From a virus (lineage: Duplodnaviria; Heunggongvirae; Uroviricota; Caudoviricetes): a DNA stretch of 15,393 nt. The stretch is taken from the IMG/VR virus record IMGVR_UViG_2675903609_000002, positions 1-15,393 of that record, one strand, 5' to 3'. Numbering within the stretch: the stretch's first letter is position 1; every line of letters begins with the position of its first letter. A model generated the notes under the pieces. The model was not told the DNA's origin. It was given only the letters and a program-made list of their open reading frames with translations, and did no database searches. Of this stretch, positions 1-15,393 are shown one piece after another. The position numbers and the translations under genes are program-made.

Positions 1-93
1 CCGCATAGTGCGCTGGGTTATCGCTCGCCACGGGAATATCTGCGGCAGCGGGCTTGTAATAGGTTAAGTGATAACAGATGTCTGGAAATATAG
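1..93 (+). CDS. insD: IS2 transposase OrfB (InsD), C-terminal 30 codons only; 5' part outside window
   Basis: Frame 1 translates to [30 protein letters not shown], stop TAG at 91-93, which is the InsD C-terminus from memory. Confidence 0.8.
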
Positions 94-104
94 GGGCAAA
101 TCCA
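1..104 (+). mobile_element. IS2, right-end fragment (element continues beyond the window start); terminus at 104
   Basis: Bases 1-104 match the 3' end of IS2 as I remember it, ending in the terminal repeat ...GTGATAACAGATGTCTGGAAATATAGGGGCAAATCCA. The sequence after 104 is unrelated usher coding sequence. Confidence 0.85.
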
Positions 105-1829
105 CCAGCGTTCTAACGGAATACTGAGATTCAAAGAGAGTGCACGGTCATTATTTTCATCAGTGTAGCGGCTGTATTGATAATTCAGGCTGTAACCAAT
201 TCCCCATTGCTGGCCGGAAACCCCAACAGAGATATTACTGTTTTTCTCGTTATTGCCCCAATAGTCTTGCTGTGAACCGGAGGCATACAGACTTACCCCA
301 TCAAATATTGTCTGGCTGATGTTGAATTGAATTTCACTTTTTTGGCGACTGTTATAGCCCCAATTGCGGGTATTGGCTTCATCAAAACTAAAATAGCCAT
401 CGTTGGTATAGCGATAGTAGCTAACAGCGATATTGGTGTTGGTTTCCGGGATATCTTTGATGTACTGAGTACGCCATTGATAGCCATGAAAAGAGTGCTG
501 GTTATCGAATTGGGTGTCAGCTCTGTTGATATCCATCGACAACGCGCCCAGTGCGCCAAGTGTGCCGCCGATACCGATCCCCAGCGCATAATAATCTTCA
601 GAACCGAGCAGGCCGCCATACAGCGTAAAAGTATTATTCAAACCATATATTGCCGTGGCTTCAGCAAATTCGGGTTCCTTGCTATCACTGTTTGCATCAG
701 CGCGATAGCGTCCAGCGGTCGCGCTATATTTTAGATGCCCAGGTCGCTGCATCATGGGTAATGAAGAATAAGGCTGGATAAAGCGACGTTGTGTACCGTC
801 ACTTTCTTCAATCGTGACTTCTAAATCGCCGCTGTTGGAAGAGGGGTAGAGATCGTTAATTTCAAAGGCACCCGCTGGCACGTTGCTTTGATAGATCACA
901 TAACCATTTTGCCTGATAGTCACGATTGCACTACTGTTTGCGATACCGCGTACCGTTGGGGCAAATCCGCGCTGGCTGTTTGGCAACATATTATCGTCGG
1001 AAGCGAGTTGCACGCCAGTAAAGGCGTAGCTGGAAAAAATACTGCCGCTGGTGGCGCTTTCTCCCAGAAGCAACTGAGACTTCAACGCCTTGATATCACG
1101 TTGTAAATAACTACTGATAGTGTTCCAGCTTGACGCCTGATCGTTGCGTGTCCACGTAGAATAGTTACGTAATCGCCAGGGGCCAAAATTAGCACCATTT
1201 TGCATATTCAGGTACTGTCGTTGGCTACGATTGCCCTGGCGGTAACGGTTATCAGAACCTGTAAACGAGTAGTTGGTAAACAGCGTTGGTATACCATCGT
1301 CCCAACGAGAAGGGGAGACGTAACCTCTTGCATCACGGTACAGTGCAATTTGGGGAATGCTCAAATTAAGTCGCTGATGATTGAAATCAAATTCAGCAGC
1401 TGTACCGGGAATGATTTGTTCAAGCGAGTTGATCACGCTATCGTCATCTTTTTCAGCCAGCGCCGGGATTTCATCCACCTTAATACCCAGCTCACGTAGT
1501 TGTTCTACCGTAAACTGTGGCTGCAGAAGTTGCTCTGCATTGGCGGTAAATGTAATTTTTTTCTGTGAAACCTTCTTTTTATTCAGCCAGATATCAACCT
1601 GATAAGTTCCTGGTAGTTGTGCGTATTTTTTTGAAAAACGTGACAGATCGGTTGTTTGCATACCACTTTTTGTAGTTTCCAGCATAATGGGGTCGAAATA
1701 ATACTCTTCGGCGTTAGCGGTAGTGCAAAGCATGCCGCTGCCAGTGAGCACCATCGGCAAACAACGTTTGATAATGAGCGCCAACTGTTTCGGTGTGCGT
1801 TTATGTCCCTGGTGGTGTCGTTGTGGCAT
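105..1829 (-). pseudogene. Fimbrial outer-membrane usher (PapC/FimD family), interrupted by IS2; N-terminal ~575 codons present
   Basis: Minus-strand ORF with signal peptide and usher N-terminal motif (MPQRHH...MVLTGSGMLCTTANAEEYYFDPIMLE...). The frame runs without a stop into the IS2 end at 104, so track ORF 18..1898 is a read-through artefact. Start taken at ATG 1829, 28 nt after the chaperone stop. Confidence 0.8.
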
Positions 1830-1857
1830 TCCCTGATGGCCTGTGTTTTTATATTTT

Positions 1858-2493
1858 TTATTGCAGTGGACGAGTTTCTGTCCCGGAACTGCCGCCATAA
1901 TCGTTGATCGCAGCCCATTTCACGTTCTTTCCGCCAGATGCTGGAAGTGGTAACTGTTTATGTTCTCCGGGCGCGATATATTCAATTTTGCTTGTGAGAT
2001 CGGTTTTATCGACTGCCAGTCCGGCAAATACGACGTAATATTCAGTTGGGTTATATATATTGAGTGAATGGTCACTACGTTTAAATTCCAGTGATTTCCA
2101 CGCATCGTTTACCCGTCCCTTCAGGTGTGCGGGGCGATAAAACATTTTGACCCGCGTTTTAAATACCAGCGTCAACTCGTTAGCATTAACATCATCTGAT
2201 TTTTTCTTTGCTGGAATGGCACGAACATTAATGTAGAACAGCGACTCTTTATTTTCAGGCAGGTTATCAGCTGTTTTAATAATTCGCAGTGATGAGTCAT
2301 CGCCAGCCTCAAGACGAAATAGCGGTGGGGTTATAATAAATGGGGCACGGCTTTTACCATCTATATTATCTACCCATGATTGCAGTAAATAAGGCGTTTC
2401 TGCGCCTTTGTTTGCGACAGGTAACGCAGCCTCTTTGCGGCTGGCATCATAGATCACTCGCGTTCGCTGTAAAACGATACCCCCTGCAGACAT
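1858..2493 (-). pseudogene. Fimbrial periplasmic chaperone (PapD/FimC family), 5'-truncated with no signal peptide
   Basis: Translation has chaperone hallmarks ([14 protein letters not shown]..., ...YLLQSWVDN...[13 protein letters not shown]...). The ORF begins at the mature-protein position, with an in-frame TAG (2494-2496) directly upstream and no signal peptide in any frame. Confidence 0.7.
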
Positions 2494-2562
2494 CTACTTG
2501 AAGCGGCAGGGGATTGATTGGAATGGTGTTTTTTAGATGTGAGAAATATTTTACCCGCTATT

Positions 2563-2763
2563 TTACCCATTGGCGCGGCTTAAGAGCTTATTTTTGAATT
2601 CACAATGGTCACGATATAACCATCTTGCTCGACCGTGGATAACTTTGGCTTTAGGCAGGTCGCCGGACTTAATCCGGTCGTAGATGAAGGTTTTACCAAA
2701 GCCAGTATCAGCCATGATGAATTTCAAATCAACCAGTGAATCAGGTTGTAGTTCGTGTTGCAT
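2563..2763 (-). CDS. AlpA/excisionase-family small DNA-binding protein (Xis-like), 66 aa
   Basis: SD GGAG 9 nt upstream of ATG 2763. Sequence ...DLKFIMADTGFGKTFIYDRIKSGDLPKAKVIHGRARW... resembles phage AlpA/Xis HTH proteins. It is the last gene of the leftward operon, where lambdoid xis sits. Confidence 0.55.
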   Translation of the reverse strand: MQHELQPDSLVDLKFIMADTGFGKTFIYDRIKSGDLPKAKVIHGRARWLYRDHCEFKNKLLSRANG

Positions 2764-2804
2764 GAGTGCTATCTCCGAATAGGGAATCGAACCTGCAAAT
2801 CAGG

Positions 2805-2830
2805 CAATAAAAAACCGCCATCAGGCGGCT
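2805..2830 (-). terminator. Intrinsic terminator candidate after the zinc-ribbon gene
   Basis: Minus-strand RNA AGCCGCC-UGAU-GGCGGUU followed by a U-rich tail (UUUUUUAUU). Confidence 0.45.
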
Positions 2831-2894
2831 TGGTGTTCTTTCAGTTCTTCAATTCGAATATTGGTTACATTGTTTTCATATATGAATAAATAAA

Positions 2895-3074
2895 TTAGCT
2901 TTTTTCGTTGCCTTCGCGTTCTTTATTAATTTTGACAAAATCGTTTTTACCACGCTCTCCAAATGCGTCTTTAGAGTCGTTGTATCCGCAATCGCAGCAC
3001 ACATAATCATCAGACCATCCACGCATTGTTTTTTCTTTTGCAATATTTCCAGAACCGCATTTTGGACAAGACAT
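2895..3074 (-). CDS. Small zinc-ribbon protein, 59 aa (CPKC...CCDC)
   Basis: SD GGAGG 7 nt upstream of ATG 3074. Translation MSCPKCGSGNIAKEKTMRGWSDDYVCCDCGYNDSKDAFGERGKNDFVKINKEREGNEKS has two Cys pairs. Confidence 0.55.
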   Translation of the reverse strand: MSCPKCGSGNIAKEKTMRGWSDDYVCCDCGYNDSKDAFGERGKNDFVKINKEREGNEKS

Positions 3075-3170
3075 ATCACTACCTCCAAAGCATGAGTGAG
3101 ATGACAACGTAACATTGATTGGAGATTAACAATAGATTGCTGATGTAAAAGATATGTATAAGCTTCGCTT

Positions 3171-4055
3171 TCAAAGTGGAGGCTCTGGTAGTGGCATCCA
3201 GTGGGTTACATTGCTAATCAGACCATATTCATTAGTTTGAGGATGGTTGCCGTTATCGTCTCCGTATTTAAGACTCTCCATAAAACCATAATGCTTATTC
3301 CCATTAACGCTCACAAAGCCGTAATAAGCTGGTATAACGCCGATCTCACACGTAATCAGCAAAGGAAAACTAGTTCTCCAATTTAGCTCGCCGATTACAG
3401 GCATTCTCTCACTACAGCTTATCCAACTATCCTGAGTTACCGGAGAGTTGCGCATTGCGACCTTTAATGCCTCATAGAAGCAACCTTTCAGATTGTTGAA
3501 CTGACGCCCATTTAGCAGGCCGTGTTCAGTCAGCATGTTGTGTAATTTCCATGCCGCGTCGTTTACTTCGCTGGATGACAGGGGAGGCAACTTGTAAGTT
3601 TGGCTTACAGTTTCGGCACCATGAAGCATGGCGTCGCTCCGCTCTATGCCATCCAGCGCGATTCGCAGTGCCTGAATTGTGGTAGAGCTATCGTTTGGGG
3701 CTATTCCATATCGCTCGAATACAGCTAAATGGTTGCGCATAATCTCAGGCGTAAGCTCTTTGTAAGCATAAGCAAGAGGCTCTGATGCATTATCCGGCAC
3801 AACCGACGCAGGCGCGGCAGCATAAACAGGAATAACGTCCGCTTGCTCTTTATTGCTTTCATCCGTTAAAGCCCAGAATAATTTCCCGGCAGGATGTTTG
3901 AAAATATAAGCAACTGGTTCTGCTTCCAGCGATGCCAGAGCAATTCGTGCCAGTTCTTCCGCTTCTTCTGCTGGCAGTTCAACGTTGCTACCAGGTCCGT
4001 ATGTTTCGCGCCACTGCTTGATTGTCAGTAGTCGCTCTTTGGTCATAGTGGTCAT
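3171..4055 (-). CDS. Phage early protein, 294 aa, C-terminal region resembling DUF551 (...THWMPLPEPPL)
   Basis: SD AAGGAG 7 nt upstream of ATG 4055, 1 nt after the upstream stop. Long ORF in the operon orientation. The DUF551 assignment is from motif memory only. Confidence 0.6.
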   Translation of the reverse strand: MTTMTKERLLTIKQWRETYGPGSNVELPAEEAEELARIALASLEAEPVAYIFKHPAGKLFWALTDESNKEQADVIPVYAAAPASVVPDNASEPLAYAYKELTPEIMRNHLAVFERYGIAPNDSSTTIQALRIALDGIERSDAMLHGAETVSQTYKLPPLSSSEVNDAAWKLHNMLTEHGLLNGRQFNNLKGCFYEALKVAMRNSPVTQDSWISCSERMPVIGELNWRTSFPLLITCEIGVIPAYYGFVSVNGNKHYGFMESLKYGDDNGNHPQTNEYGLISNVTHWMPLPEPPL

Positions 4056-4056
4056 A

Positions 4057-4785
4057 TCACTCTCCTTTGATGCGAAAGCCAGCTGCGCTTGCTGATTCTT
4101 CATATGCGCGTTTAGCAGCGTTAAGGATTGCTGCCAGTGGCGTATAGCCGCCATCCATTCGGATTGTGTTGTGGATGCCAGCCATTGTGTTGCGCAATTT
4201 TCTGTGGCTAGCAGACAGTTCTGCTATGCGCTTCTCTGCGGCTTCCAGCTTCTCGCGCATATCGTCAACGTACTCGACCAGAGAACCGCCAGCAGGAATT
4301 TCGCACTCCTCGACCAGTTGGAAGTAGATATCAGCTGCGGCCCGTGTGTTGCTATGCCTAGCGTCGCCCATCTCACCTTCACGAAGAGCATCGCGTTCGG
4401 CGGTAAGATTGGCTATTTTGCTGTCTTTGCCTTCCAGCTCAACGCGCAGCTTCCCTACCGTTAGCGCAATTTCCTCGTTCTCCTGATCGCGGCGTTTTAT
4501 GTATTGCTGGTTTCTTTCCAGCTCATCCAGCAGTGCCAGCACGGTAGCTGGACTGGCTGCGGCGATGAATTCAGCATTGGCCTGCTGTTCCATTTGGAAA
4601 TCTTCATCGAAACCGCTTTCAGGATGCGCTCCTTCAATTCTGCAAATGGGAATATATCCAGCAGCCTCGCGATGAATTAGGGCATCATCACCATCAAATC
4701 GGCTCTCTCCATATTCGAGCGACCACTCACCACACGTTGCTTTCTCTGCCTTGGCACGCAGTGCCTGATAGTCAATCTTGCTCAC
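4057..4785 (-). CDS. Ea22/Ead-like phage protein with central coiled coil, 242 aa, GTG start
   Basis: Strong SD AAAGGAGG 7 nt upstream of GTG 4785. The upstream part of track ORF 4057..4977 overlaps the Lar-like gene in another frame and is discounted. Confidence 0.55.
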   Translation of the reverse strand: MSKIDYQALRAKAEKATCGEWSLEYGESRFDGDDALIHREAAGYIPICRIEGAHPESGFDEDFQMEQQANAEFIAAASPATVLALLDELERNQQYIKRRDQENEEIALTVGKLRVELEGKDSKIANLTAERDALREGEMGDARHSNTRAAADIYFQLVEECEIPAGGSLVEYVDDMREKLEAAEKRIAELSASHRKLRNTMAGIHNTIRMDGGYTPLAAILNAAKRAYEESASAAGFRIKGE

Positions 4786-5005
4786 TGTTTGCCTCCTTTG
4801 CTCGCTGATTCCACTCTGCTCTAACCTCTGAATAAAAAATCGCGCAGTCATTTCCAGGCGCTGCATATTTGCTACCAGATTGAGCGCGACACGTACCGCA
4901 TCGAACGAAATAGAATCGACCGCCAGAGCCATATTCAGGGTGATCTGCTTCGCTGGCAACGTGCGCTGCACCGCCACAGAATGGACATGGTAGTAGGTTG
5001 CTCAT
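4772..5005 (-). CDS. Lar-family restriction-alleviation-type zinc-finger protein, 77 aa
   Basis: [16 protein letters not shown]...FVRCGTCRA... has the CPFCGG / CxxC pattern of Lar-family proteins. SD AAGGGAG upstream; its ATG overlaps the upstream stop as ATGA. Confidence 0.6.
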   Translation of the reverse strand: MSNLLPCPFCGGAAHVASEADHPEYGSGGRFYFVRCGTCRAQSGSKYAAPGNDCAIFYSEVRAEWNQRAKEANSEQD

Positions 5006-5562
5006 GAATGCACTCCCTTGTGAAGCTGTTCCGCACAATGCAGCAGGGCGTCAGTCGCCTCTTTCACCGTAACGCAGTCGCCATCGTCCAGCCCGGACAC
5101 CGACGCGTGCTTAACGAACGCCGCGCAAAGGTCATCAAACGCCTTAGCCCGGACTTCAGTCAGGAAAGCATCGGTGGCTGGGGTGTCTGATTGCATAGAC
5201 TTTGCGCGATAGTCATTCCACCCTCTTGCATACATGGGATTAACTTGCACTCCATCTTTTACGCAATATGCCTGCCCTCCACGGTTGATAACCTTGATTT
5301 CGTCCATAGCGCCAGACTTCAGCCCCGCATTCTCCGCTGCCAGTGCCGAAAACTTCTCGTGTGCCAACTTAACAGCCGAATCAGCCTGCTTAATTGACTC
5401 AATCGCTTTCTGTTGGTCTTCGGCCAGCGCCAAAATCTTGGCCTCCGCTTCAGCAAATTTACGCACCAGATATTCAGCGTTTGTTTCGTTAACATTTAAA
5501 TCTCGTGGGATGCATTTACCTTTCAGAAAACCATCCATCTCAATTAGTGACATTTGTTTCAT
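5002..5562 (-). CDS. Hypothetical phage protein, 186 aa
   Basis: ATG 5562 overlaps the stop of the upstream small ORF (ATGA). SD-like GGAG upstream. Helical N-terminal half, no motif I recognise. Confidence 0.55.
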
Positions 5563-5723
5563 TTCTTCCCACTCCGCCACATCGCATTCAGATATTTGTT
5601 TTGATTCACTGATGGAAACGAGTTTCGCTTAAGCAATTCCTCTCTCGATGGCATTGGCTTTACGCGTTGGCGAATAATCATTTCTGCCGGAAGAATGCCG
5701 GGATTGTATGCAAGTCCTCTCAT
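5559..5723 (-). CDS. Hypothetical small protein, 54 aa
   Basis: SD GAGGA 7 nt upstream of ATG 5723. Stop overlaps the downstream start (ATGA). Longer in-frame starts at 5756 and 5741 lack an SD. Confidence 0.4.
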
Positions 5724-5733
5724 GGTAAATTCC

Positions 5734-6030
5734 TCAGTCATTACTGATAGCGCCATAGCGTGATCGATAATTACGCAGACGCGGGTCGATATATTCAGGG
5801 AAGTGGGTATATGTGGCTTTGCGGAATGGTCGGATTGATGTCTGGTAAATTCGCTCGCGTTCTTCTTTCTCTGCAAGCCATATACAGTGGCGAAATTCCT
5901 TTTCCTCTTTCGTTTCCTGCGGTAGCGACATTATCCGATCGTAGTTTTTTCTGAATTTATCCAGCACCTCCGATACGGAATTGCCGGAACAGCGGCGCGG
6001 GTCATCCGCACCATACAGAGGCGCTGGCAT
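5734..6030 (-). CDS. Hypothetical phage protein, 98 aa
   Basis: SD AGGAGA 5 nt upstream of ATG 6030, 14 nt after the exonuclease stop. Confidence 0.55.
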
Positions 6031-6046
6031 GTTTTTCTCCTGTTGA

Positions 6047-6595
6047 TTATTTAGCTAACTTTTTCCAGATCGCTGAAACGTATTTGGCTTGGTGAATGGC
6101 ATCATCAAGAGCGTTGTGGCGAGTTCCTTTGAATGGCATATCTCGCTTAGGGTCGAATCCTATTGCCTTCCCAAGTTCGACGATTGTTCTTACGTCGCGG
6201 TCATTCCACCACTGCCACGGAACTGGCTGCCCTGTCAGCGAATAACTGTTGCGGAGAATAACGCAGTCAAATGATGCTCCATTCCCCCAAACCTGAACGA
6301 ATTTGTGGTTAGCGTTCTTTATGATGAATTCAGATAACCATGAAAGAGCCGTTGAAAGCTCCTGAGTGTTGCTGGTTAGCGATTTCCTGGCTTCTTCACT
6401 CTGTTCCAGCCACCATAAAATCGTTGAAGCGTCAGGACGCGCTCGATATCGCATTGATGATTCAAGCGAGATATTTACCGAGAACTCTTCTCCTGTTTCT
6501 CCGGTATTCGGGTCAAAGAATACCGCCCCAATAGAAATAACTGGCGCGTATGGCCCGTTGCCCATTGTTTCAAGGTCAACCATCAAGTGATTCAT
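6047..6595 (-). CDS. DnaQ-like (DEDD) 3'-5' exonuclease, 182 aa
   Basis: Exo motifs MVDLETMG (I), WGNGASFD (II) and HNALDDAIHQA (III). SD AAGGA upstream. Confidence 0.8.
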   Translation of the reverse strand: MNHLMVDLETMGNGPYAPVISIGAVFFDPNTGETGEEFSVNISLESSMRYRARPDASTILWWLEQSEEARKSLTSNTQELSTALSWLSEFIIKNANHKFVQVWGNGASFDCVILRNSYSLTGQPVPWQWWNDRDVRTIVELGKAIGFDPKRDMPFKGTRHNALDDAIHQAKYVSAIWKKLAK

Positions 6596-6603
6596 GTAAG
6601 TCC

Positions 6604-7119
6604 TTAAATTGCGTGAATAGCGTGACGAGGGAAGGGGAGAGTTACTGGTGCAAAGGGGATATCGTCGTCAAAATCCATAGGTGGTTCGCTGTGATTTCCC
6701 TGCTGCTGAGGTTGCTGTCTTTGTTGCTGACCATTATTTCGCTGAGGTGAAGACTGTTCATTGCCTCCTTGCTTGCCACCAAGCATTTGCATGGTTCCAC
6801 CAACGCCCACGATGACTTCGGTAGTGAACCGATCCTGTCCGCTTTGATCCTGCCATTTTCTTGTCCGCAATTTGCCTTCAAGATAAACCTCAGAGCCTTT
6901 TCGCAGATATTCGCTGGCAATTTCTGCCAGTTTCCCGCTCATTACCACGCGGTGCCACTCCGTCTGCTCCTTTTGCTCTCCAGTTTTCTTATCACGCCAT
7001 TGTTCTGACGTAGCAACGGTAAGGTTTGCAAATGCCGTTCCTGATGGTGAATATCTGATTTCTGGATCATGCCCAAGGCGACCAATAATGATCACCTTAT
7101 TTACGCCTCTGCTTGCCAT
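6604..7119 (-). CDS. ssb: Single-stranded DNA-binding protein (SSB), 171 aa, with a 15-aa extension after the DDDIPF tip
   Basis: [16 protein letters not shown]... OB fold, Gly/Gln-rich linker, then ...[11 protein letters not shown] followed by [15 protein letters not shown] before the stop. Confidence 0.9.
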
Positions 7120-7827
7120 TTATGCCGCCTGTTTTAGTTCGTTAACTCTGATGTTCATTACCTGAACGCATTTAGCCTGCGCCTCCTCGTTGCCAGCCAT
7201 TAATTGCCAGTCACGCTGATAACGCTCGATGAGTTTTTTCTTGTCAGTTTCTGTTGACGCATAATCGCTGAAGTCTTTCAGGATTTGTTCGCAGTCAACC
7301 GATGGAGATTTCTGGTTGGTATTTTCTGGTGATGGTTTGTTATCTGATGCTGGGATTGCCCATCCCGGCAGCGATGGAGGGAGCCAGTAAAATCCTGTTC
7401 CATCCTTGAGTTTTGCCCTGTGCCATCCCTGCTTTTTATCGAGAGATGTTTGTGCAAAACCTTCCTCAAGGTTATACAGATACCGACCGATCCCCCACTG
7501 AACGGCAGCGCGCTTCATTGCACCGGAACGACCACCTTTGACGGCTTCTACCTGCGTGTTTTCAGCAGCATCCCATTTGGTTACCCATTCGGAATCAATC
7601 CTGATTGATATGCCGCATTCAACGCCTCCGTTGTTGGGAATATCGCGGTATTCATTGCGCCATCCTGCTTTGCCGCAAACATCGTCCAGGCGTTTCATGA
7701 TTGCCCGGTTCGTGACATAAGCCAGCACCATAGCCCACACTTTGCCATCGCGTGTTTTACCGCTTTGCTGTATTCGCCATTCGATATCTTCAGGGCTGAA
7801 TGGCTTATCGAATTTATTCAAATCCAT
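7120..7827 (-). CDS. Rad52/Rad22-family single-strand annealing protein (Sak-like), 235 aa
   Basis: ...AYVTNRAIMKRLDDVCGKAGWRNEY...GGVECGISIRI... fits the Rad52 N-domain pattern. Directly upstream of ssb (stop abuts the ssb ATG); SD GAGGTGA upstream. Confidence 0.65.
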   Translation of the reverse strand: MDLNKFDKPFSPEDIEWRIQQSGKTRDGKVWAMVLAYVTNRAIMKRLDDVCGKAGWRNEYRDIPNNGGVECGISIRIDSEWVTKWDAAENTQVEAVKGGRSGAMKRAAVQWGIGRYLYNLEEGFAQTSLDKKQGWHRAKLKDGTGFYWLPPSLPGWAIPASDNKPSPENTNQKSPSVDCEQILKDFSDYASTETDKKKLIERYQRDWQLMAGNEEAQAKCVQVMNIRVNELKQAA

Positions 7828-7926
7828 AATTCACCTCAGAATGGACATGGCCCAAGGAAATAACGCTGGTTTAATACTTCGACTCTGGACAAATTAAGGC
7901 ATACCCGCATTCCTTCGCGGTCACCA

Positions 7927-8085
7927 TTATGGCGATACCAGAGAGCTTTCTGCGTGTACATGCGTCTCTGTAACTTGCTCTCCTTCACTGTGGTTGCAAG
8001 TGACATGAATATCTCCTTCGTTACCGATTAATTCTTTCATATGACGAATGAATTCTTCGTCTGACCAGTTATCTGTAAAACTCAT
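7927..8085 (-). CDS. Hypothetical small protein, 52 aa
   Basis: ATG 8085 overlaps the Kil-like stop as ATGA. No SD of its own; an internal ATG at 8040 is an alternative start. Confidence 0.3.
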   Translation of the reverse strand: MSFTDNWSDEEFIRHMKELIGNEGDIHVTCNHSEGEQVTETHVHAESSLVSP

Positions 8086-8234
8086 TTCCTGCGACACCAC
8101 GGAAGGTTGATAGCTGATTTCATCGCTTTATTTGCTTCAAGCCACATTTTTGAATCACCAATAAATCTGGCTATTACTGCTTTGTTCTGTGCAGCACGAA
8201 GCATCTGATGATTTATGGCTATTTCATTGCGCAT
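8082..8234 (-). CDS. Kil-like small protein, 50 aa (not in ORF track, under 60 aa)
   Basis: MRNEIAINHQMLRAAQNKAVIARFIGDSKMWLEANKAMKS... resembles the ...FIGDEKM... core of lambda Kil / Rac KilR from memory. Lies immediately downstream of cIII as in lambda. Confidence 0.5.
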   Translation of the reverse strand: MRNEIAINHQMLRAAQNKAVIARFIGDSKMWLEANKAMKSAINLPWCRRK

Positions 8235-8350
8235 AATAAGACCTCAACTCTTTTCCATCCGTCACGTAATTTACGGGTGATTCGTTCAAGTAAAGATTCA
8301 TTTAGTTGGAAGGCACCCATGCGAGCGCCTCCCGCGATTGCGTAAATCAT
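8219..8350 (-). CDS. cIII: cIII-like protease inhibitor, 43 aa (not in ORF track)
   Basis: MIYAIAGGARMGAFQLNESLLERITRKLRDGWKRVEVLLCAMK. The core ESLLERITRKLRDGWKR matches lambda cIII as I recall it. SD AAGGA 7 nt upstream. Confidence 0.8.
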   Translation of the reverse strand: MIYAIAGGARMGAFQLNESLLERITRKLRDGWKRVEVLLCAMK

Positions 8351-8374
8351 GGGTGGTTCCTTATGTTGGTTTTA

Positions 8375-9343
8375 TTAGTAGGTTATTTTTGTTGCGAATA
8401 CTTCGCCTTTTACGATGGCTGTTATGATATTTTTAGCAACATCTTCTGATGCACCAACCTTGATAAGGTCAGCAAGTATTTTGTTATTTACTTCTTTCCG
8501 GTGAGCTTTATCCTTTGCTCTACGCTCTTCTTCTTCCTTGATTCTTTTTTCTTCTGCTATTCTGGCTTGCTCTTTTGCTTCAGCATCGCGACGGATTCGT
8601 TCAGCCTCCTCCTGTGCTTTTCTGCGTTCTGCTTCAATTGCTGCCTGCTTTTCTCTTTCAGCTCGTTCTGCTGCCTCTTTTGCTTCGCGCTGTGCTCGCT
8701 GCTCGGCTTCAATGCGTTCACGCTCTGCACGTTCCGCTGCGGCCTTAGCTTCTGCTTCTCGCCTTGCTGCTGCTTCAATTTCGGCTTTTGCCTTTGCTTC
8801 GGCTTCTGCTCTGGCTTTCTCTTCAGCTTCTCTTTTTAAGCGTTCTTCATGCTCTCGCTTTTCCTGCTCCGCTTTGAGTCTTGCCTCTTCTCTTTGGCGG
8901 TCAAATTCGCGATCCATCAAAATAGCTATTTCATGGTCAGACTCAATTTGCTTTGCGAGAGCTTCAGCTGCTGCCTTAGCTTCTTCTTCGGCTTTAATCC
9001 GCGCCTGTTCTTCCTCATAATCAGTAAGAGGCTGGCGCGCCTTGGCTTTCAGTTCATCAAGGCGATCGCGCACTGTCTTGCGGTTAGCATCAATTAGCTT
9101 TGGAATTTCCTTCAGTTCAGCAACAAGGTCTTTGCCAAGACCATCGAGATATGTTTTCGTCTGCGCAACTTTATACGCCAGAGAAGCGATCTCCTTTCTG
9201 CCCTTTGCCGTTGTGATATCAGGCACAAAGGACATAACTTCACGTTCAACCTTTTGAAGGATTTCTTCAATCTGGTCGGCAGACTGAAATACAGTCATTG
9301 CATTTGCTTTTTCAATAACAACTAAATCTGTTACTTCACTCAT
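8375..9343 (-). CDS. Hypothetical early protein, 322 aa: N-terminal ~120-aa domain, ~170-aa Ala/Glu/Lys/Arg-rich coiled-coil region, short C-terminal domain
   Basis: SD GGAGGA 5 nt upstream of ATG 9343. Long ORF in operon orientation. The central region is low-complexity at DNA level. Confidence 0.7.
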   Translation of the reverse strand: MSEVTDLVVIEKANAMTVFQSADQIEEILQKVEREVMSFVPDITTAKGRKEIASLAYKVAQTKTYLDGLGKDLVAELKEIPKLIDANRKTVRDRLDELKAKARQPLTDYEEEQARIKAEEEAKAAAEALAKQIESDHEIAILMDREFDRQREEARLKAEQEKREHEERLKREAEEKARAEAEAKAKAEIEAAARREAEAKAAAERAERERIEAEQRAQREAKEAAERAEREKQAAIEAERRKAQEEAERIRRDAEAKEQARIAEEKRIKEEEERRAKDKAHRKEVNNKILADLIKVGASEDVAKNIITAIVKGEVFATKITY

Positions 9344-9355
9344 ATATCCTCCGTC

Positions 9356-9384
9356 AAAAAAATTGCCCTCACACTGGAGGGCAA
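9356..9384 (-). terminator. Intrinsic terminator immediately upstream of the 322-aa gene
   Basis: Minus-strand RNA UUGCCCUC-CAGUGU-GAGGGCAA followed by U7; the gene's SD starts 5 nt later. Confidence 0.6.
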
Positions 9385-9500
9385 AGAAGATTTCCAATAA
9401 TCAGAACAAGTCGGCTCCTGTTTAGTTACGAGCGACATTGCTCCGTGTATTCACTCGTTGGAATGAATACACAGTGCAGTGTTTATTCTGTTGTTTATGC

Positions 9501-9528
9501 CAAAAATAAAGGCCACCGTCAGGCAGCC
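9501..9528 (-). terminator. Intrinsic terminator candidate overlapping the ral stop codon
   Basis: Minus-strand RNA GGCUGCC-UGAC-GGUGGCC (two G.U pairs) followed by UUUAUUUUU. Confidence 0.45.
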
Positions 9529-9719
9529 TTGTTGTTCAGTTTACCAAGTTCTCTGGCAATCATTGCCGTCGTTCGTATTGCCCATTTATCGACATATTTC
9601 CCATCTTCCATTACAGGAAACATTTCTTCAGGCTTAACCATGCATTCCGATTGCAGCTTGCATCCATTGCATCGCTTGAATTGTCCACACCATTGATTTT
9701 TATCAATGGTCGTAGTCAT
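9519..9719 (-). CDS. ral: Ral restriction-alleviation protein, 66 aa
   Basis: MTTTIDKNQWCGQFKRCNGCKLQSECMVKPEEMFPVMEDGKYVDKWAIRTTAMIARELGK... matches lambda Ral almost residue-for-residue from memory. Confidence 0.9.
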   Translation of the reverse strand: MTTTIDKNQWCGQFKRCNGCKLQSECMVKPEEMFPVMEDGKYVDKWAIRTTAMIARELGKLNNKAA

Positions 9720-9789
9720 ACGGATAGTCCTGGTATTGTTCCATCACATCCTGAGGATGCTCTTCGAACTCTTCAAATTCTTCTTCCAT
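9703..9789 (-). CDS. Small acidic ORF, 28 aa, between N and ral
   Basis: ATG 9789 with SD GGTG 4 nt upstream. Translation MEEEFEEFEEHPQDVMEQYQDYPYDYDH; overlaps the ral start by 16 nt. Confidence 0.35.
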   Translation of the reverse strand: MEEEFEEFEEHPQDVMEQYQDYPYDYDH

Positions 9790-9797
9790 ATATCACC

Positions 9798-10124
9798 TCA
9801 AATAAGTGGTTTGCTGCCTAATTTCATTTTCTGGCGACCAACACAAGTCACACCCATTTCACTGCGTGGCTTGCTGTACCATGTGCGCTGATTCTTGCGC
9901 TCAATACGCTGCAGGTTGCTTTCAATCTGTTCGTGGTATTCAGCCAGCACCGTAAGGTCTATCGGATTCAGTGCGCTTTCTACTCGTGATTTCGGTTTGC
10001 GATTCAGCGAGAGAATAGGGCGGTTAACTGGTTTTGCGCTTACCCCAACCAACAGGGGATTTGCTGCTTTCCATTGAGCCTGTTTCTCTGCGCGACGTTC
10101 GCGGCGGCGTGTTTGAGAGTCCAT
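9798..10124 (-). CDS. N: Antitermination protein N, 108 aa
   Basis: MDSQTRRRERRAEKQAQWKAANPLLVGVSAKPVNRPILSLNRKPKSRVESALNPIDLTVLAEYH... is near-identical to lambda N (Arg-rich motif intact), differing mainly in the C-terminal ~20 aa. Confidence 0.95.
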   Translation of the reverse strand: MDSQTRRRERRAEKQAQWKAANPLLVGVSAKPVNRPILSLNRKPKSRVESALNPIDLTVLAEYHEQIESNLQRIERKNQRTWYSKPRSEMGVTCVGRQKMKLGSKPLI

Positions 10125-10165
10125 ATATCATCCTCAGATAAATGGCCCCTCAGCGGGGCCGACAG

Positions 10166-10294
10166 TTATTGGCAGGTTGCGTACTTGCTGATGCAGGAGA
10201 AGATTTCCACGATTCGCGTCATTGTTGTTTCAGGACGCTTTGCTTCATCACGCATTGACTTCAACCAAGCCATAAAGTGTTCGTTATGTTTCAT
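10166..10294 (-). CDS. Small ORF, 42 aa, inserted between the N leader and N (not in ORF track)
   Basis: ACAGGAG-ATGAAC-ATG: it uses the SD that precedes N directly in lambda. Translation MKHNEHFMAWLKSMRDEAKRPETTMTRIVEIFSCISKYATCQ. A GGCCCC-GCUGA-GGGGCC hairpin (10144-10160) follows. Confidence 0.35.
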   Translation of the reverse strand: MKHNEHFMAWLKSMRDEAKRPETTMTRIVEIFSCISKYATCQ

Positions 10295-10561
10295 GTTCAT
10301 CTCCTGTCAGTTAGCTTTGGTGGTGTGGTGGCTGGTAGTCTAGCTCCAGCTTGTTGAGTCTCATTCGGAGGGGTATAACCGGCACCCCAGCGATTTTTCC
10401 ATGCGACAACGTGCGCGTTATGGCGGCCTTATCGCCCGCGGCTCCCCATCTCGTCCACGCTATTGCTAGCGTTGGGAGCGCTTCACCGCTCAACAGTAGG
10501 TAAGCACTTGCCAGTGACTAGCTGGCTTCACCACACCCCAAAGCCTTCTGCTTTGAATGCT

Positions 10562-10592
10562 GCCCTTCTTCAGGGCTTAATTTTTAAGAGCC
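10562..10592 (-). promoter_or_regulatory. nutL (boxA-like + boxB hairpin)
   Basis: Minus strand reads GGCTCTTAAAAATTAA-GCCCTGAAGAAGGGC. The boxB hairpin matches lambda nutL as I recall it; boxA has G where lambda has C at its first position. Confidence 0.8.
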
Positions 10593-10636
10593 TCACCTTC
10601 ATGGTGGTCAGTGCGTCCTGCTGATGGCTTAAAATT

Positions 10637-10704
10637 ACAAGAAAGATTGTATGTTGTAAACAAGAAATATTGTAAAAAGGGGCGTGAAAAACAAACTCCA
10701 TTGT
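10637..10704. promoter_or_regulatory. OL operator cluster (OL1 10637-10650, OL2 10660-10673, OL3 10691-10704) with the PL promoter
   Basis: Three 14-bp ACAA-N6-TTGT sites: ACAAGAAAGATTGT, ACAAGAAATATTGT, ACAAACTCCATTGT. Minus-strand -35 candidates TTTACA at 10660-10655 or 10676-10671; hexamers not resolved. Confidence 0.75.
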
Positions 10705-10753
10705 TTTTAAATGAAAAATAGTTTGTTTTTGGTTATCGAGATTGAGGTGGGGA

Positions 10754-12106
<1,353 letters not shown>

Positions 12107-12114
12107 GACATTCC

Positions 12115-12146
12115 CGCTCTTACACATCCCAGCCCTGAAAAAGGGC
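12115..12146 (+). promoter_or_regulatory. nutR (boxA CGCTCTTACACA + boxB GCCCTGAAAAAGGGC)
   Basis: Matches lambda nutR boxA/boxB from memory; sits just after the cro stop. Confidence 0.8.
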
Positions 12147-12215
12147 ATTACCAGAAACAAATCTCTATGGTTTTGCGTTTCTTTGCGAAGCCAACTCTAT
12201 CTAATCATTAAGGAA

Positions 12216-12248
12216 ATTATCTATGGGTACTATTGCAACTAAAAGCAA
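12216..12248 (-). promoter_or_regulatory. PRE-like cII-activated promoter (TTGC-N6-TTGC box at 12248-12235, -10 GATAAT at 12221-12216)
   Basis: Minus strand reads TTGCTTTTAGTTGC, 13 nt, GATAAT, inside the first cII codons. This is the same architecture and position as lambda PRE. Confidence 0.55.
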
Positions 12249-12504
12249 GAAAGCGGCTCGCATCGAGTCAGCCTTGCTGAACAAACTGGCACTGATGGGG
12301 CAGAAGACATTCGCTCGAGCAATGGGGGTTCCTGAATATCAGGTAAGCCGATGGAAGAATGGTTTCTTCTCGCAGGTAAGCATGATGCTTGCTGTTCTGG
12401 AATACGGAATCGAAGACGATGAAATGGCTGAATTGACTAAGCGGCTTGCCGATTACCTGACAAAAGAAAAAGCCCCGAAGAACGGCGAATTCTTCGAGGC
12501 CTAA
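12223..12504 (+). CDS. cII: cII transcriptional activator, 93 aa
   Basis: ...[15 protein letters not shown]...[10 protein letters not shown]...[19 protein letters not shown]... parallels lambda cII. SD AAGGA upstream. Confidence 0.85.
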
Positions 12505-12538
12505 TGTAGAAAGACTGGATCAATCCACGGGAGTAATT

Positions 12539-12685
12539 ATGACAAAACAACTCAGTCCTTACCAGGACAAAATTCACAAACACATACTACGTGATCGCTT
12601 CCTGTCCAGCTTCAAGCAGCATGGTCGATTCCGGGCTGAGTTGGAAAAAGTGAAGCTGATGCAGAAGGAGAAAGGTCATGAGTAA
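12539..12685 (+). CDS. Small ORF, 48 aa, between cII and O (not in ORF track)
   Basis: SD GGGAG 8 nt upstream of ATG 12539. Translation [48 protein letters not shown]; overlaps the O start by 8 nt. Confidence 0.4.
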
Positions 12686-13538
12686 TCTTGCAACCGTAAC
12701 ACATTTAAGGCCTTCACAACGGCCTGTGGAGCGTCGTGTGGCAGAAGTTGAAGATGGTTATACCCGTCTTGCAAATGCCCTGTATGAAGAGCTTATCGGC
12801 GCAGATTTAACGAAAAATCAGAGCAAGGTTGCCCACGCCATATGCCGTAAAACATACGGCTACGGTAAAAAGATGGATCGCATCTCTGATAGTCAGTTAG
12901 CTCAAATTACCAGGCTGCCAAGACAGAAGGTAAACAAGGCCAAGAATGAGCTTATCGCGATGAAGGTTATCCTTCGCGAAGGCCAGCAAATCGGGCCTAA
13001 CAAGAACATCGAGGAATGGCAAATAGAAGGGTGTCACTACTCTGGTGATAATGTCACTGCATTGGTGACAAAAAGTGTCACCAAAACGGTGACAGCGCTG
13101 TCACCAAAACAGGGACACACAAAAGAAACTATTACAAAAGAAAAAAGAAATAATAAAAACACTATGTCCGAAAGTGTTCGGACGGAGTGTGAAAAATCAC
13201 ATGACCGTCACGAAGAAACCGACAAGGCATTCGAGGAAATATTCTGGTGTGCAGGCATGCGGAAAGCCGGGAAGAAAAACGCAGCTTCGGCATTCAGAAC
13301 ACAGTTCAGGGAATGGCGTAAAACTACCAGGGGTACGGCAAGCGAGTTTGCCACGATGCTGGCAGAAGACATCGCATGCAGGAATGGTAAGCAGTTCGGA
13401 TTCGACAGGTTGTTACCATCGAGCTACCTGAACGGTCAACGCTGGAACGACGAGAAGCCAGAAACTATTCAACCACAATCCAAACCATCATCCGCAATCA
13501 CCGTATCGAAAACTGGCTACGTGTTTTTCGACAGGTGA
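12678..13538 (+). CDS. O: Replication initiator O-like protein, 286 aa
   Basis: N-terminal ~100 aa (...[58 protein letters not shown]...) parallel lambda O. SD AGGAGA upstream; iteron origin inside the gene. Confidence 0.9.
13032..13165. other. Replication origin: four 19-bp iterons (13032-13050, 13052-13070, 13076-13094, 13099-13117) plus AT-rich region (13118-13165)
   Basis: Palindromic iterons TGTCACY-N5-RGTGACA, two with an AAAAC spacer, then about 48 bp of A-rich DNA. Lambda ori inside O has the same architecture (TCCCTC-AAAAC-GAGGGA). Confidence 0.75.
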
Positions 13539-13541
13539 ACC

Positions 13542-13649
13542 ATGAAATCAAAAATCAAATCGCTACTGGTTGCTGGTTATAACCACGGCTGGTTAAGTAT
13601 TTCGTTTGTCGATTTCTGGTTTAAAAATCTCAATCTGAGGGAATCATGA
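13542..13649 (+). CDS. Small hydrophobic ORF, 35 aa, bridging O and the primase-helicase
   Basis: ATG 13542 lies 3 nt after the O stop. Its stop TGA overlaps the primase-helicase ATG (ATGA). Translation MKSKIKSLLVAGYNHGWLSISFVDFWFKNLNLRES. Weak SD. Confidence 0.3.
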   Translation: MKSKIKSLLVAGYNHGWLSISFVDFWFKNLNLRES

Positions 13650-15393
13650 CGCCAAGTGAACTTAGCGACCTGCTTTGGGCGCAGGTTGACAGGGTGGCTC
13701 CGCACCTGTTGCCAAACGGCAAGAAAGAGGGGCATGAGTGGGTTGCCGGTAACGTCAATGGTGACAAGGGAAACAGCCTTAAGGTCAACCTTAGCGGCAA
13801 GAAAAAATGGGCTGATTTCGCTGAGGGAGACGGCGGTGACATGCTTGATTTGTGGATGGCATGTCGTGGAATTAACCTGCATCAGGCTATGCAGGAAGCG
13901 AAAGCATTTCTCGGTATCAAGGATGACGATCACCATTTCGATGCCAAACGTGAGAAAAAATTCTCCAGACCTGATCGCAAGAAAATCGCCCGCTACGTTA
14001 CCAGAACAGAATCCCATCTTGAGTACCTGCAATCGCGTGGCATATCGCCAGAAGTCGTAAAGCGCTACGAGGTTGTCAGCGGCAAGGTGTGGAATGGAGA
14101 ACGAGAACTTGATGCACTGGTGCTTCCGTACAAACGCGATGGTGAGTTGTTGCAGGTCAAGCGAATCAGCACTGAGCGCCCGGACGGGAAGAAAGTCATT
14201 ATGGCAGAAGGTGATTGCGAACCTTGTCTGTTCGGATGGCAGGCTCTGGACGCTGGCGTGAGGGCGGTTGTACTTTGCGAAGGCGAAATTGATTGTATGA
14301 GCTATGCGCAATACGGCATCTCGGCGTTATCCGTGCCGTTTGGTGGAGGGAAAGGCGCTAAGCAACAGTGGATTGAGTTTGAGTACCACAACCTCGACAG
14401 GTTTGAGGAAATATTCATCTCGATGGACGTTGATGATGTTGGTCGTGAAGCCGCAAGGGAAATCGCAAGCCGACTCGGTGAACATCGTTGCCGTCTTGTT
14501 ACTCTGCCGTACAAAGACATCAACGAATGCCTGATGAACGGTGTTACCGAGGATGAAATCTGGCAGTACATCGGCACGGCATCCTACTTTGATCCTGAAG
14601 AACTCTACAGCGCGCGAGAGTTTTACCAGGACACTATCAACGCTTTCTACGGCAAGCAGCAGTATCTGTTTAATCCACCGTGGGAATCTCTGGCAGATAA
14701 ATTCCAGTTTCGTGAGGCCGAGTTGACGCTGGTCAATGGTGTGAACGGTCACGGAAAAACGGAGGTTGTCGGGCATATGGCACTTGAGGCAATGCGTCAG
14801 GGTGTGAAGACGTGCATCGCGTCACTTGAGCTGAAGCCTGGTATTCTCCTTAAGCGCCTTACCCGTCAGGCGACGTGCTGCAAGATGCCGCCAGTGCTGG
14901 AAATTGACTCTGCATTTAAATTTTATGACGAAAGACTTTGGGTGTTTGGCCTGACTGGAACGGCGAAAGCCGACAGGCTGATCGAAATATTCGACTACGC
15001 TCGCCGCCGATACGGCATCCAGTTATTCATCATCGACAGCCTGATGAAATGCGGCATAGGTGACGATGACTATAACGGGCAGAAAGCATTTGTTGACTCG
15101 ATTTGTGACTTCAAAAACAAAACAAACTCCCACGTCATTCTCGTTACTCACTCCAGAAAAGGAGATAGCGAAGAAAAACCAACCGGGAAAATGGACGTAA
15201 AAGGCTCTGGAGCGATAACAGACCTGACAGACAACCTTTTTATCATCTGGCGTAACAAGGCTCGCGAGAGAGCGTTACAGAGAGTTCAGAGTGGTGAAAA
15301 GATGTCAGAGAAGGACGAACAGCTACTGGCATCTCCGGCATCTGTTTTGATGCTTGAAAAACAACGTAACGGCGAAGGTTGGGAAGGTGGTGT
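13646..15393 (+). CDS. Bifunctional DNA primase (toprim) / DnaB-like replicative helicase, 5' partial (3' end beyond window)
   Basis: Open frame from ATG 13646 (SD GAGGG) to the window end with no stop, 582 codons. Absent from the ORF track because it is open-ended. Toprim motifs VLCEGEIDCMSY and SMDVDDVGREAA; Walker A GVNGHGKT; Walker B-like LFIIDSLMK. Confidence 0.85.
   Translation, partial: MTPSELSDLLWAQVDRVAPHLLPNGKKEGHEWVAGNVNGDKGNSLKVNLSGKKKWADFAEGDGGDMLDLWMACRGINLHQAMQEAKAFLGIKDDDHHFDAKREKKFSRPDRKKIARYVTRTESHLEYLQSRGISPEVVKRYEVVSGKVWNGERELDALVLPYKRDGELLQVKRISTERPDGKKVIMAEGDCEPCLFGWQALDAGVRAVVLCEGEIDCMSYAQYGISALSVPFGGGKGAKQQWIEFEYHNLDRFEEIFISMDVDDVGREAAREIASRLGEHRCRLVTLPYKDINECLMNGVTEDEIWQYIGTASYFDPEELYSAREFYQDTINAFYGKQQYLFNPPWESLADKFQFREAELTLVNGVNGHGKTEVVGHMALEAMRQGVKTCIASLELKPGILLKRLTRQATCCKMPPVLEIDSAFKFYDERLWVFGLTGTAKADRLIEIFDYARRRYGIQLFIIDSLMKCGIGDDDYNGQKAFVDSICDFKNKTNSHVILVTHSRKGDSEEKPTGKMDVKGSGAITDLTDNLFIIWRNKARERALQRVQSGEKMSEKDEQLLASPASVLMLEKQRNGEGWEGG

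Follow-up and report, generated by a model that had tools for sequence, protein, structure and literature searches.

Does a lambdoid prophage whose initiator gene has neither the iteron half-sites of lambda nor a P gene downstream of it still carry a replication origin of the lambda kind? The stretch of DNA studied here, called the window throughout, is 15,393 nucleotides (nt) from a virus of the Caudoviricetes (IMG/VR record IMGVR_UViG_2675903609_000002, positions 1 to 15,393). It contains an O-like replication initiator gene, and within that gene four palindromic repeats, or iterons, are followed by an A-rich tract. Are these the parts of an origin that is read by its own initiator? Or do the repeats serve the peptide that they encode, or some other DNA-binding protein? 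An earlier note, made from the sequence alone, had proposed an iteron origin inside O with the spacing of the lambda origin (ori) and different half-sites, which would define a distinct O/ori specificity group. We find that the locus is very probably the replication origin of a lambdoid prophage of the Sf101/mEp043 type, built just as lambda ori is and placed within O, with a mechanism that is assigned by homology to lambda.

The iterons are four palindromes of 19 bp with the pattern TGTCACY-N5-RGTGACA, within the stretch that the earlier note had marked (starts at 13032, 13052, 13076 and 13099; Table 1), the first and the fourth being imperfect in the right arm. When up to two mismatches are allowed, the pattern is matched four times in the whole window, and these matches are the four iterons. 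Dinucleotide-preserving shuffles of the window (n = 200) gave a mean of 0.13 matches and a maximum of 2, and none of the 200 reached 4. With four sites against 0.13 expected, an origin of the iterons in chance or low complexity is ruled out. Iterons 3 and 4 have the AAAAC spacer of lambda, where it occurs in ITN1, ITN2 and ITN4. Iteron 4 combines a type-specific left arm with a spacer and right arm that lie within a stretch common to lambda ITN4 (...CAAAACAGGGGGA).

Relative to O, the four copies of the motif begin in frames 0, 2, 2 and 1, and each of them is a palindrome. The constraint is therefore on DNA and not on peptide, which rules out a peptide-level repeat as the source of the iterons. 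The linker peptide that they encode is repetitive and rich in V and T, and is wholly unlike the linker of lambda O. The linker differs between iteron types over a constant DNA architecture, and as a peptide it seems to be a side effect of the iterons. A repressor operator, or a site of the CRP or LexA kind, was also considered and rejected, because the OR operators of the prophage differ from the iterons (they are of the ACAAGATACATTGT type) and there are no further matches to the iterons in the window. By inspection, the palindrome fits neither TGTGA-N6-TCACA nor CTGT-N8-ACAG.

Directly after iteron 4 comes the A-rich tract, which the earlier note had put at about 48 bp and which is 48 nt long (13118-13165; 32 A, 7 T, 6 C and 3 G), the GC content of the region being 24-32%. 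Only one 40-mer in the whole window is less stable than the core of the tract, 13121-13160, which has a nearest-neighbour free energy (dG) of -40.8 kcal/mol, compared to a mean of -54.1 kcal/mol (standard deviation 3.8) for all 40-mers of the window. Iterons and tract together lie inside the O-like gene. To the right of the tract there is an inverted repeat with arms of 14 nt each (13159-13172 and 13177-13190) that are 86% complementary. It stands at the position of the lambda ori palindrome and is part of the C-terminal module of O.

The right-hand palindrome falls into three sequence classes, which track the C-terminal domain of O and its helicase partner. The GTCCGAAAGTGTTCGGAC class of the window is kept in ES18 (L083), and in both it is found with a primase-helicase. 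Other palindromes are present in lambda (L002), phi80 (L089) and PhiR26_1 (L087), where TCGTCMGAGAATTCTGRCGAATCCTC goes with P, and in P22 (L085), mEp213 (L086), phiEt88 (L084) and vB_BPM-V3, where CCCCCTTACCCCC..GGGGG goes with helicases of the DnaB type. This palindrome could be a partner-specific loading element, or it could be merely linked coding sequence.

How close is the likeness to lambda? The annotated lambda iterons ITN1 to ITN4 start at 39034, 39054, 39078 and 39101, which gives a start-to-start spacing of 20/24/23, and the spacing in the window is identical. The first iteron is at gene offset 355 in the O of the window and at 349 in lambda O, and in both the iterons are directly followed by CACAAAAGA...ACTATTACAAAAGAAAAAAGAAA. 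The coding region of the N-terminal domain is 61% identical to that of lambda at the nucleotide level. In the iteron stretch (13032-13105 against lambda 39034-39107) 26 of 74 positions are identical, and from 13106 to 13151 (lambda 39108-39153), which takes in the spacer and right arm of iteron 4 and the A-rich tract, 42 of 46 are identical in an ungapped alignment. The O proteins are 49% identical over amino acids (aa) 1-157 and are unrelated beyond about residue 157. The match of architecture that the earlier note had claimed is therefore borne out, as is the difference in the half-sites, with a consensus of TGTCACC against ATCCCTC in lambda, unlike at most positions.

The same four-site register followed by CACAAAAGA is present in ES18, P22, mEp213 and the Proteus phage vB_BPM-V3 as well as in lambda, and it is because of this common register that we regard the resemblance as positional homology in which the half-site letters have been replaced, not as a loose likeness. 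The ES18 and P22 records annotate a rep_origin within the O homologue. P22 gene 18 and the O of the HK97-mEp213 type have the 20/24/23 layout of four iterons inside the O homologue; their half-sites are TTTACC/GGTAAA (P22) and ATTAGCC (mEp213) and, unlike the window, both have a DnaB-type helicase partner. The four repeats of about 20 bp in P22 gene 18 had been described before as different from those of lambda (PMC8022706).

The window thus has a Phage_rep_O domain, an iteron cluster within the gene at the domain junction, a strand-asymmetric A+T-rich region and an inverted repeat just to the right of it, as a lambda-type origin does. It is not a lambda replicon in the strict sense, having neither the ATCCCTC half-site nor the lambda-type helix 3 (PVKRCNEAK in lambda, PRQKVNKAK here), the lambda O C-terminus or a downstream P. 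In lambda the partner is P, the O C-terminal domain is unrelated to that of the window and the right-hand palindrome has another sequence. The gene downstream of O in the window, which the earlier note had called a helicase, is neither P nor a gene for a plain helicase, and encodes a primase-helicase with Toprim and DnaB-like parts (Pfam matches to Toprim_2, E 3e-12, AAA_25 and DnaB_C). Its homologues Sf101_0045 and mEp043_055 are annotated as 'similar to ES18 gp61', and ES18 gp61 in turn as 'putative primase/helicase; similar to phage T7 gene 4'.

The O protein has three parts. Its N-terminal winged-helix domain (aa ~20-114), putatively origin-binding, is followed by a linker (aa ~118-163), for which the iterons and the A-rich tract are the coding sequence, and then by a C-terminal domain like that of ES18/epsilon34. 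The Pfam family Phage_rep_O (PF04492; E 1e-37, 128.8 bits, cut-off 28.7) is matched by residues 20-114, and the protein also matches TIGR01610 phage_O_Nterm (E 2e-30, 105 bits, cut-off 45.5). No PDB relative of O was found by sequence search. An AlphaFold2 (AF2) model of the N-terminal domain was made from an alignment of homologous proteins that are mostly truncated, and which was used for the structure model only. It predicts helices at 46-59, 71-78 and 82-94 and strands at 69-70, 98-101 and 104-107, and it would place the PRQKVNKAK motif in helix 3 of a helix-strand-helix-helix-wing unit. The predicted local distance difference test score (pLDDT) averages 65 and is 78-85 over aa 71-100. A Foldseek search of the PDB with this model gave weak matches (E about 0.01), which were uniformly winged helices of the MarR/CRP type and are to be taken as consistency only.

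Which features of O go with the TGTCACC half-site? A scan of IMG/VR for the pattern TGTCACC-N5-GGTGACA, independent of any protein, found at least 120 loci, so that the counts given here describe a sample. Among the matches listed, a related O N-terminal domain (61-100% identical to that of the window) lies immediately upstream in each of the 51 loci where at least three sites are clustered. None of these 51 carries a mixed half-site array, and 57 single-site loci are without an O domain and look like chance matches, given the size of the database. Three distant loci, with a domain that is 46-49% identical, carry one or two TGTCACC iterons. Every TGTCACC-linked O domain that was aligned, down to 46% identity, keeps (L/I)PRQKVN(K/P)AK in helix 3. 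These include vB_BPM-V3 (68.6% identical), L136 (61%) and the three distant loci (L159, L102 and L200), as well as the window and Sf101.

Domains that are 54-65% identical and have other helix-3 motifs adjoin other half-sites. ISRSKANIAKN is found with TGTTACC / TGTWYCC (phiEt88, Midgardsormr38 and Omnitron), LSRQNVNKAKK with TGTCTCC (Pocitis76 and Bas106), LPVKRCNEAKL with ATCCCTC (lambda and ES18), MAPTKCSTAKN with TTTACC (P22) and IHHTHVCAAKR with ATTAGCC (mEp213 / HK97 type). The nearest other type is that of the Erwinia phages phiEt88 and Midgardsormr38, with a half-site one base off and SRSKANIAK in helix 3. Alignment of the O N-terminal domains and iterons across lambdoid phages, which the earlier note had suggested as a check, therefore finds a helix-3 motif that covaries with the half-site. 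The window has both the motif and the iterons of the proposed type, a pairing that recurs in the 51 clustered loci, in vB_BPM-V3 and in the three distant loci. This supports the view that the O N-terminal domain reads the iterons, and that TGTCACC with PRQKVNKAK would be a specificity type of its own, one among many in the family. As far as comparison can tell, the distinct group that the earlier note envisaged thus holds, in that TGTCACC iteron clusters stand solely behind PRQKVN(K/P)AK domains among the matches listed.

The three distant loci form an O clade with an insertion after helix 1 and with IPRQKVNPAKHAL as helix 3. Ahead of a CACAAAAGA tract they have half-sites and no more than one or two complete iterons (TGTCACC-aaaaa-GGTGACA), so the number of iterons varies within one half-site type.

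The unit of N-terminal domain plus iterons has been combined with at least three different downstream modules. The same allele is present in the independently isolated phages Sf101 (99.9% identity over the O gene, annotated as 'replication protein O'), mEp043 c-1 (99.2%), vB_EcoP-720R6 (99.2%) and SEN22 (98.6%), all of which have the four iterons, and 181 of 5426 complete Escherichia coli genomes contain the first 523 bp of the O gene, origin included. Relatives in IMG/VR found through the N-terminal domain were 99-100% identical copies only and were used for conservation, while the diversity of O loci was drawn from the DNA-pattern scan and from tblastn with named phages. Across 80 IMG/VR loci whose N-terminal domain is 99-100% identical, the iteron stretch hardly varies, and the few changes fall mostly in the spacers and flanks.

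In the window, Sf101 and mEp043 the unit is joined to an ES18-type C-terminal domain and the primase-helicase. In PhiR12_1 and three IMG/VR loci (L050, L070 and L077) it is joined to a lambda-type C-terminal domain and P, the PhiR12 series sharing the N-terminal domain, iterons and A-rich tract with the window at 99.8% and differing in the C-terminal domain and P. In vB_BPM-V3 the half-site, spacing and helix 3 are those of the window and, unlike the window, the partner is a DnaB-type helicase and the palindrome is CCCCTTACCCC...GGGGG. Conversely, ES18, epsilon34 and g341c (gp59 O-like and gp61 primase-helicase) have the same partner as the window, and from window position 13105 on the C-terminal half of O is 93-95% identical in DNA, whereas their N-terminal domain and iterons are of lambda type (ATCCCTC). 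The N-terminal region of the ES18-type O is 94% identical to lambda gpO (PMC2629481).

Homology breakpoints between the O modules are at about 13105-13154, in the A-rich tract that is common to all types, and this tract appears to act as a crossover zone between the origin-recognition and partner-recruitment halves of O. Identity with the PhiR12 type stops at about 13150, that with the ES18/epsilon34 type starts at 13105 and that with an Stx2a phage starts at about 13153. Classically, O has two domains, the N-terminal one binding the origin and the C-terminal one binding the partner. The location of the breakpoints therefore fits with this picture.

By homology to lambda, dimers of the O N-terminal winged helix would use helix 3 (RQKVNKAK...) and the wing to bind the four palindromic iterons. 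The bound dimers would wrap the DNA into an O-some and distort it, and the O-some would destabilise and open the adjacent A-rich tract. The C-terminal domain of O would then recruit the Toprim/DnaB-like primase-helicase of the phage, which would replace lambda P and the host DnaB. Physical binding, unwinding of the tract and recruitment of the primase-helicase are the steps that we infer. What the sequences show is the anatomy, its positional homology to lambda ori, the strict co-occurrence and covariation of helix-3 motif and half-site, and the exchange of the N-terminal unit between modules.

Several points weigh against an origin that works in this way. O binding, unwinding and origin activity, for this allele and for the alleles identical to it, rest on comparison, and the weak point of the proposed mechanism is how the O C-terminal domain would recruit a primase-helicase that resembles T7 gp4. 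In the GenBank records of Sf101 and mEp043, O is annotated and an origin is not, nor is an origin discussed in the Sf101 paper. The structure model that points to helix 3 is of moderate confidence and its fold matches are weak. Because gene and site are physically linked and part of the signal is shared descent, the covariation between helix 3 and half-site falls short of proof; much of it is at the level of clades, where it would reflect linkage and conservation rather than proven direct contacts. Finally, TGTCACC/GGTGACA arrays are also present in unrelated viral contigs that have no O-type N-terminal domain (L121/L152 and L149/L210). The family is therefore not to be recognised by its half-site alone, and the idea that TGTCACC is exclusive to the O family is ruled out.

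In those unrelated IMG/VR contigs, and in L098, GGTGACA/TGTCACC units are repeated in tandem every 22-23 bp, separated by G+C-rich spacers. The L210 array (about 3500-3580) is inside a gene for a protein of 229 aa (3246-3935). The C-terminal part of this protein is homologous to the C-terminal domain of the window O (BLASTP E 2e-10; both have the motif ...FW..RK.GK...NG.RWNDE), and its N-terminal part is a different winged helix that is weakly HTH_36-like. From the composition of this gene, the layout of an origin inside its initiator, with a similar half-site, has been reused with a different reading domain.

Of the other readings, the one that survives best takes the array to be a genuine O-binding site with no separate specificity, O also recognising the TGTTACC sites of phiEt88/Midgardsormr38 and the TGTCTCC sites of Pocitis76/Bas106, in which case a distinct group would be too strong a claim at that scale. 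It is compatible with the mechanism set out above. Those neighbouring types differ at one of the seven half-site positions, and the iterons of a single origin already tolerate one or two mismatches (GGTGATA, AGGGACA). However, the helix-3 motifs differ systematically between types at similar overall identity, and the clustered loci among the matches listed include no mixed array. We consider such cross-recognition unlikely. Distinctness from lambda is safe in any case, because the half-sites differ from those of lambda at most positions.

Could productive initiation in the primase-helicase phages take place elsewhere, with the array as a conserved relic or a regulatory O-binding site? In T7 itself, the gp4-like enzymes need no O-type initiator, which lends this some weight, and the assignment of an origin to the primase-helicase module is from sequence. 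Yet the anatomy of lambda ori is kept base for base in its spacing, the A-rich tract lies at a minimum of stability, and the array travels with O into modules of the P type and the DnaB type. Moreover, the window has no other iteron matches and the iteron stretch is nearly invariant over the 80 loci. An origin elsewhere is improbable in our view. It is more improbable still, to the point where we give it little further weight, that the repeats serve the linker peptide or another DNA-binding protein such as a repressor or a CRP-like host factor, for although the V-T-rich linker is encoded by the iterons and TGTCAC-type palindromes are also used in other settings (such as the operator-like pair that precedes a helix-turn-helix gene in L156/L180), the palindromic motif runs through three reading frames, the linkers are wholly different between types over a constant DNA architecture, the OR operators have another sequence and the array is always behind one specific O domain among the matches listed.

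Table 1. Features of the origin locus and of its surroundings in the window
Feature	Position	Strand	Remarks
O-like replication initiator gene	12678-13538	+	286 aa
Helix 3 codons (aa 82-94)	12921-12959	+	Putative iteron-reading helix, from AF2 model and covariation with half-site
Iteron 1	13032-13050	.	TGTCACT actct GGTGATA (TGTCACTACTCTGGTGATA); imperfect, one mismatch in right arm
Iteron 2	13052-13070	.	TGTCACT gcatt GGTGACA (TGTCACTGCATTGGTGACA)
Iteron 3	13076-13094	.	TGTCACC aaaac GGTGACA (TGTCACCAAAACGGTGACA); perfect palindrome
Iteron 4	13099-13117	.	TGTCACC aaaac AGGGACA (TGTCACCAAAACAGGGACA); right arm AGGGACA imperfect
A-rich tract	13118-13165	+	Putative DNA-unwinding element; 48 nt directly after iteron 4
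Inverted repeat ACACTATGTCCGAA / TTCGGACGGAGTGT	13159-13190	.	Core GTCCGAAAGTGTTCGGAC at 13166-13183; directly right of A-rich tract
Primase-helicase gene	13646-15393	+	Toprim and DnaB-like ATPase; presumed replication partner; runs off window end; 626 aa in Sf101
DUF2740 open reading frame (ORF)	12539-12685		48 codons; overlaps O start; coordinates by homology to Sf101_0043
cII	12223-12504		Upstream of O
pR/OR			Upstream of O; OR operators of ACAAGATACATTGT type, unlike iterons
CI-like repressor	11155-11787	-	Upstream of O
Ead/Ea22	4057-4977		Early recognisable phage gene at left end
DUF551	3171-4154		First recognisable phage gene, after ~700 bp with small ORFs
PapD-like chaperone	1858-2493	-	Host DNA, left end of window
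Fimbrial usher	18-1898	-	Host DNA, left end of window

The genes around O are listed in Table 1. Host fimbrial DNA makes up the left end of the window, which identifies the virus as a prophage. No integrase was detected among the window ORFs scanned, and the prophage may therefore be truncated or rearranged at its left end. At the end of cII there is a strong terminator-like hairpin on the minus strand (12470-12502; 14 pairs followed by a T run), at the position of the oop RNA terminator that is annotated in P22 ('oop; similar to phage lambda'). The DUF2740 ORF is a conserved small companion of O, annotated at the same place before O homologues with several types of iteron (P22 orf48, mEp043, Midgardsormr38 and PhiR12_1). 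In ES18 and mEp213 it is annotated as HK97 gp53-like.

How much of this is new? O/ori specificity types in lambdoid phages have long been established (PMC8022706, PMC2629481), so TGTCACC adds a type and not a concept. A literature search for the iteron string returned nothing relevant, its sole match being an unrelated primer sequence, and neither 'iteron' nor 'replication origin' occurs in a paper on Chi sites of lambdoid phages (PMC12315714). The TGTCACC origin is a previously unannotated type in phages that had already been sequenced, and an ordinary member of a well-known system.

More tentatively, and with doubts that outweigh our confidence, we suggest that TGTCACC / PRQKVNKAK is a node in a graded series comprising TGTCACC, TGTTACC and TGTCTCC, in which one-base changes of the half-site would go with two to four helix-3 substitutions, the spacing and the unwinding element are constant, and the right-hand palindrome would be a partner-specific loading element.

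The practical value of the finding is modest, and the understanding of lambdoid replication is unchanged by it. The origin can now be annotated in Sf101, mEp043, SEN22 and the PhiR12 phages, and in about 3% of complete E. coli genomes. A defined replicon-specificity type helps to predict whether prophages that reside in the same cell will show replication incompatibility or cross-complementation, and to build orthogonal minireplicons in the style of lambda. It is also a natural example of an initiator and its site evolving together while the architecture stays fixed. If the graded series is true, it would provide a readable recognition code for the winged-helix initiators of the O family and a set of mutually orthogonal origin/initiator cassettes.

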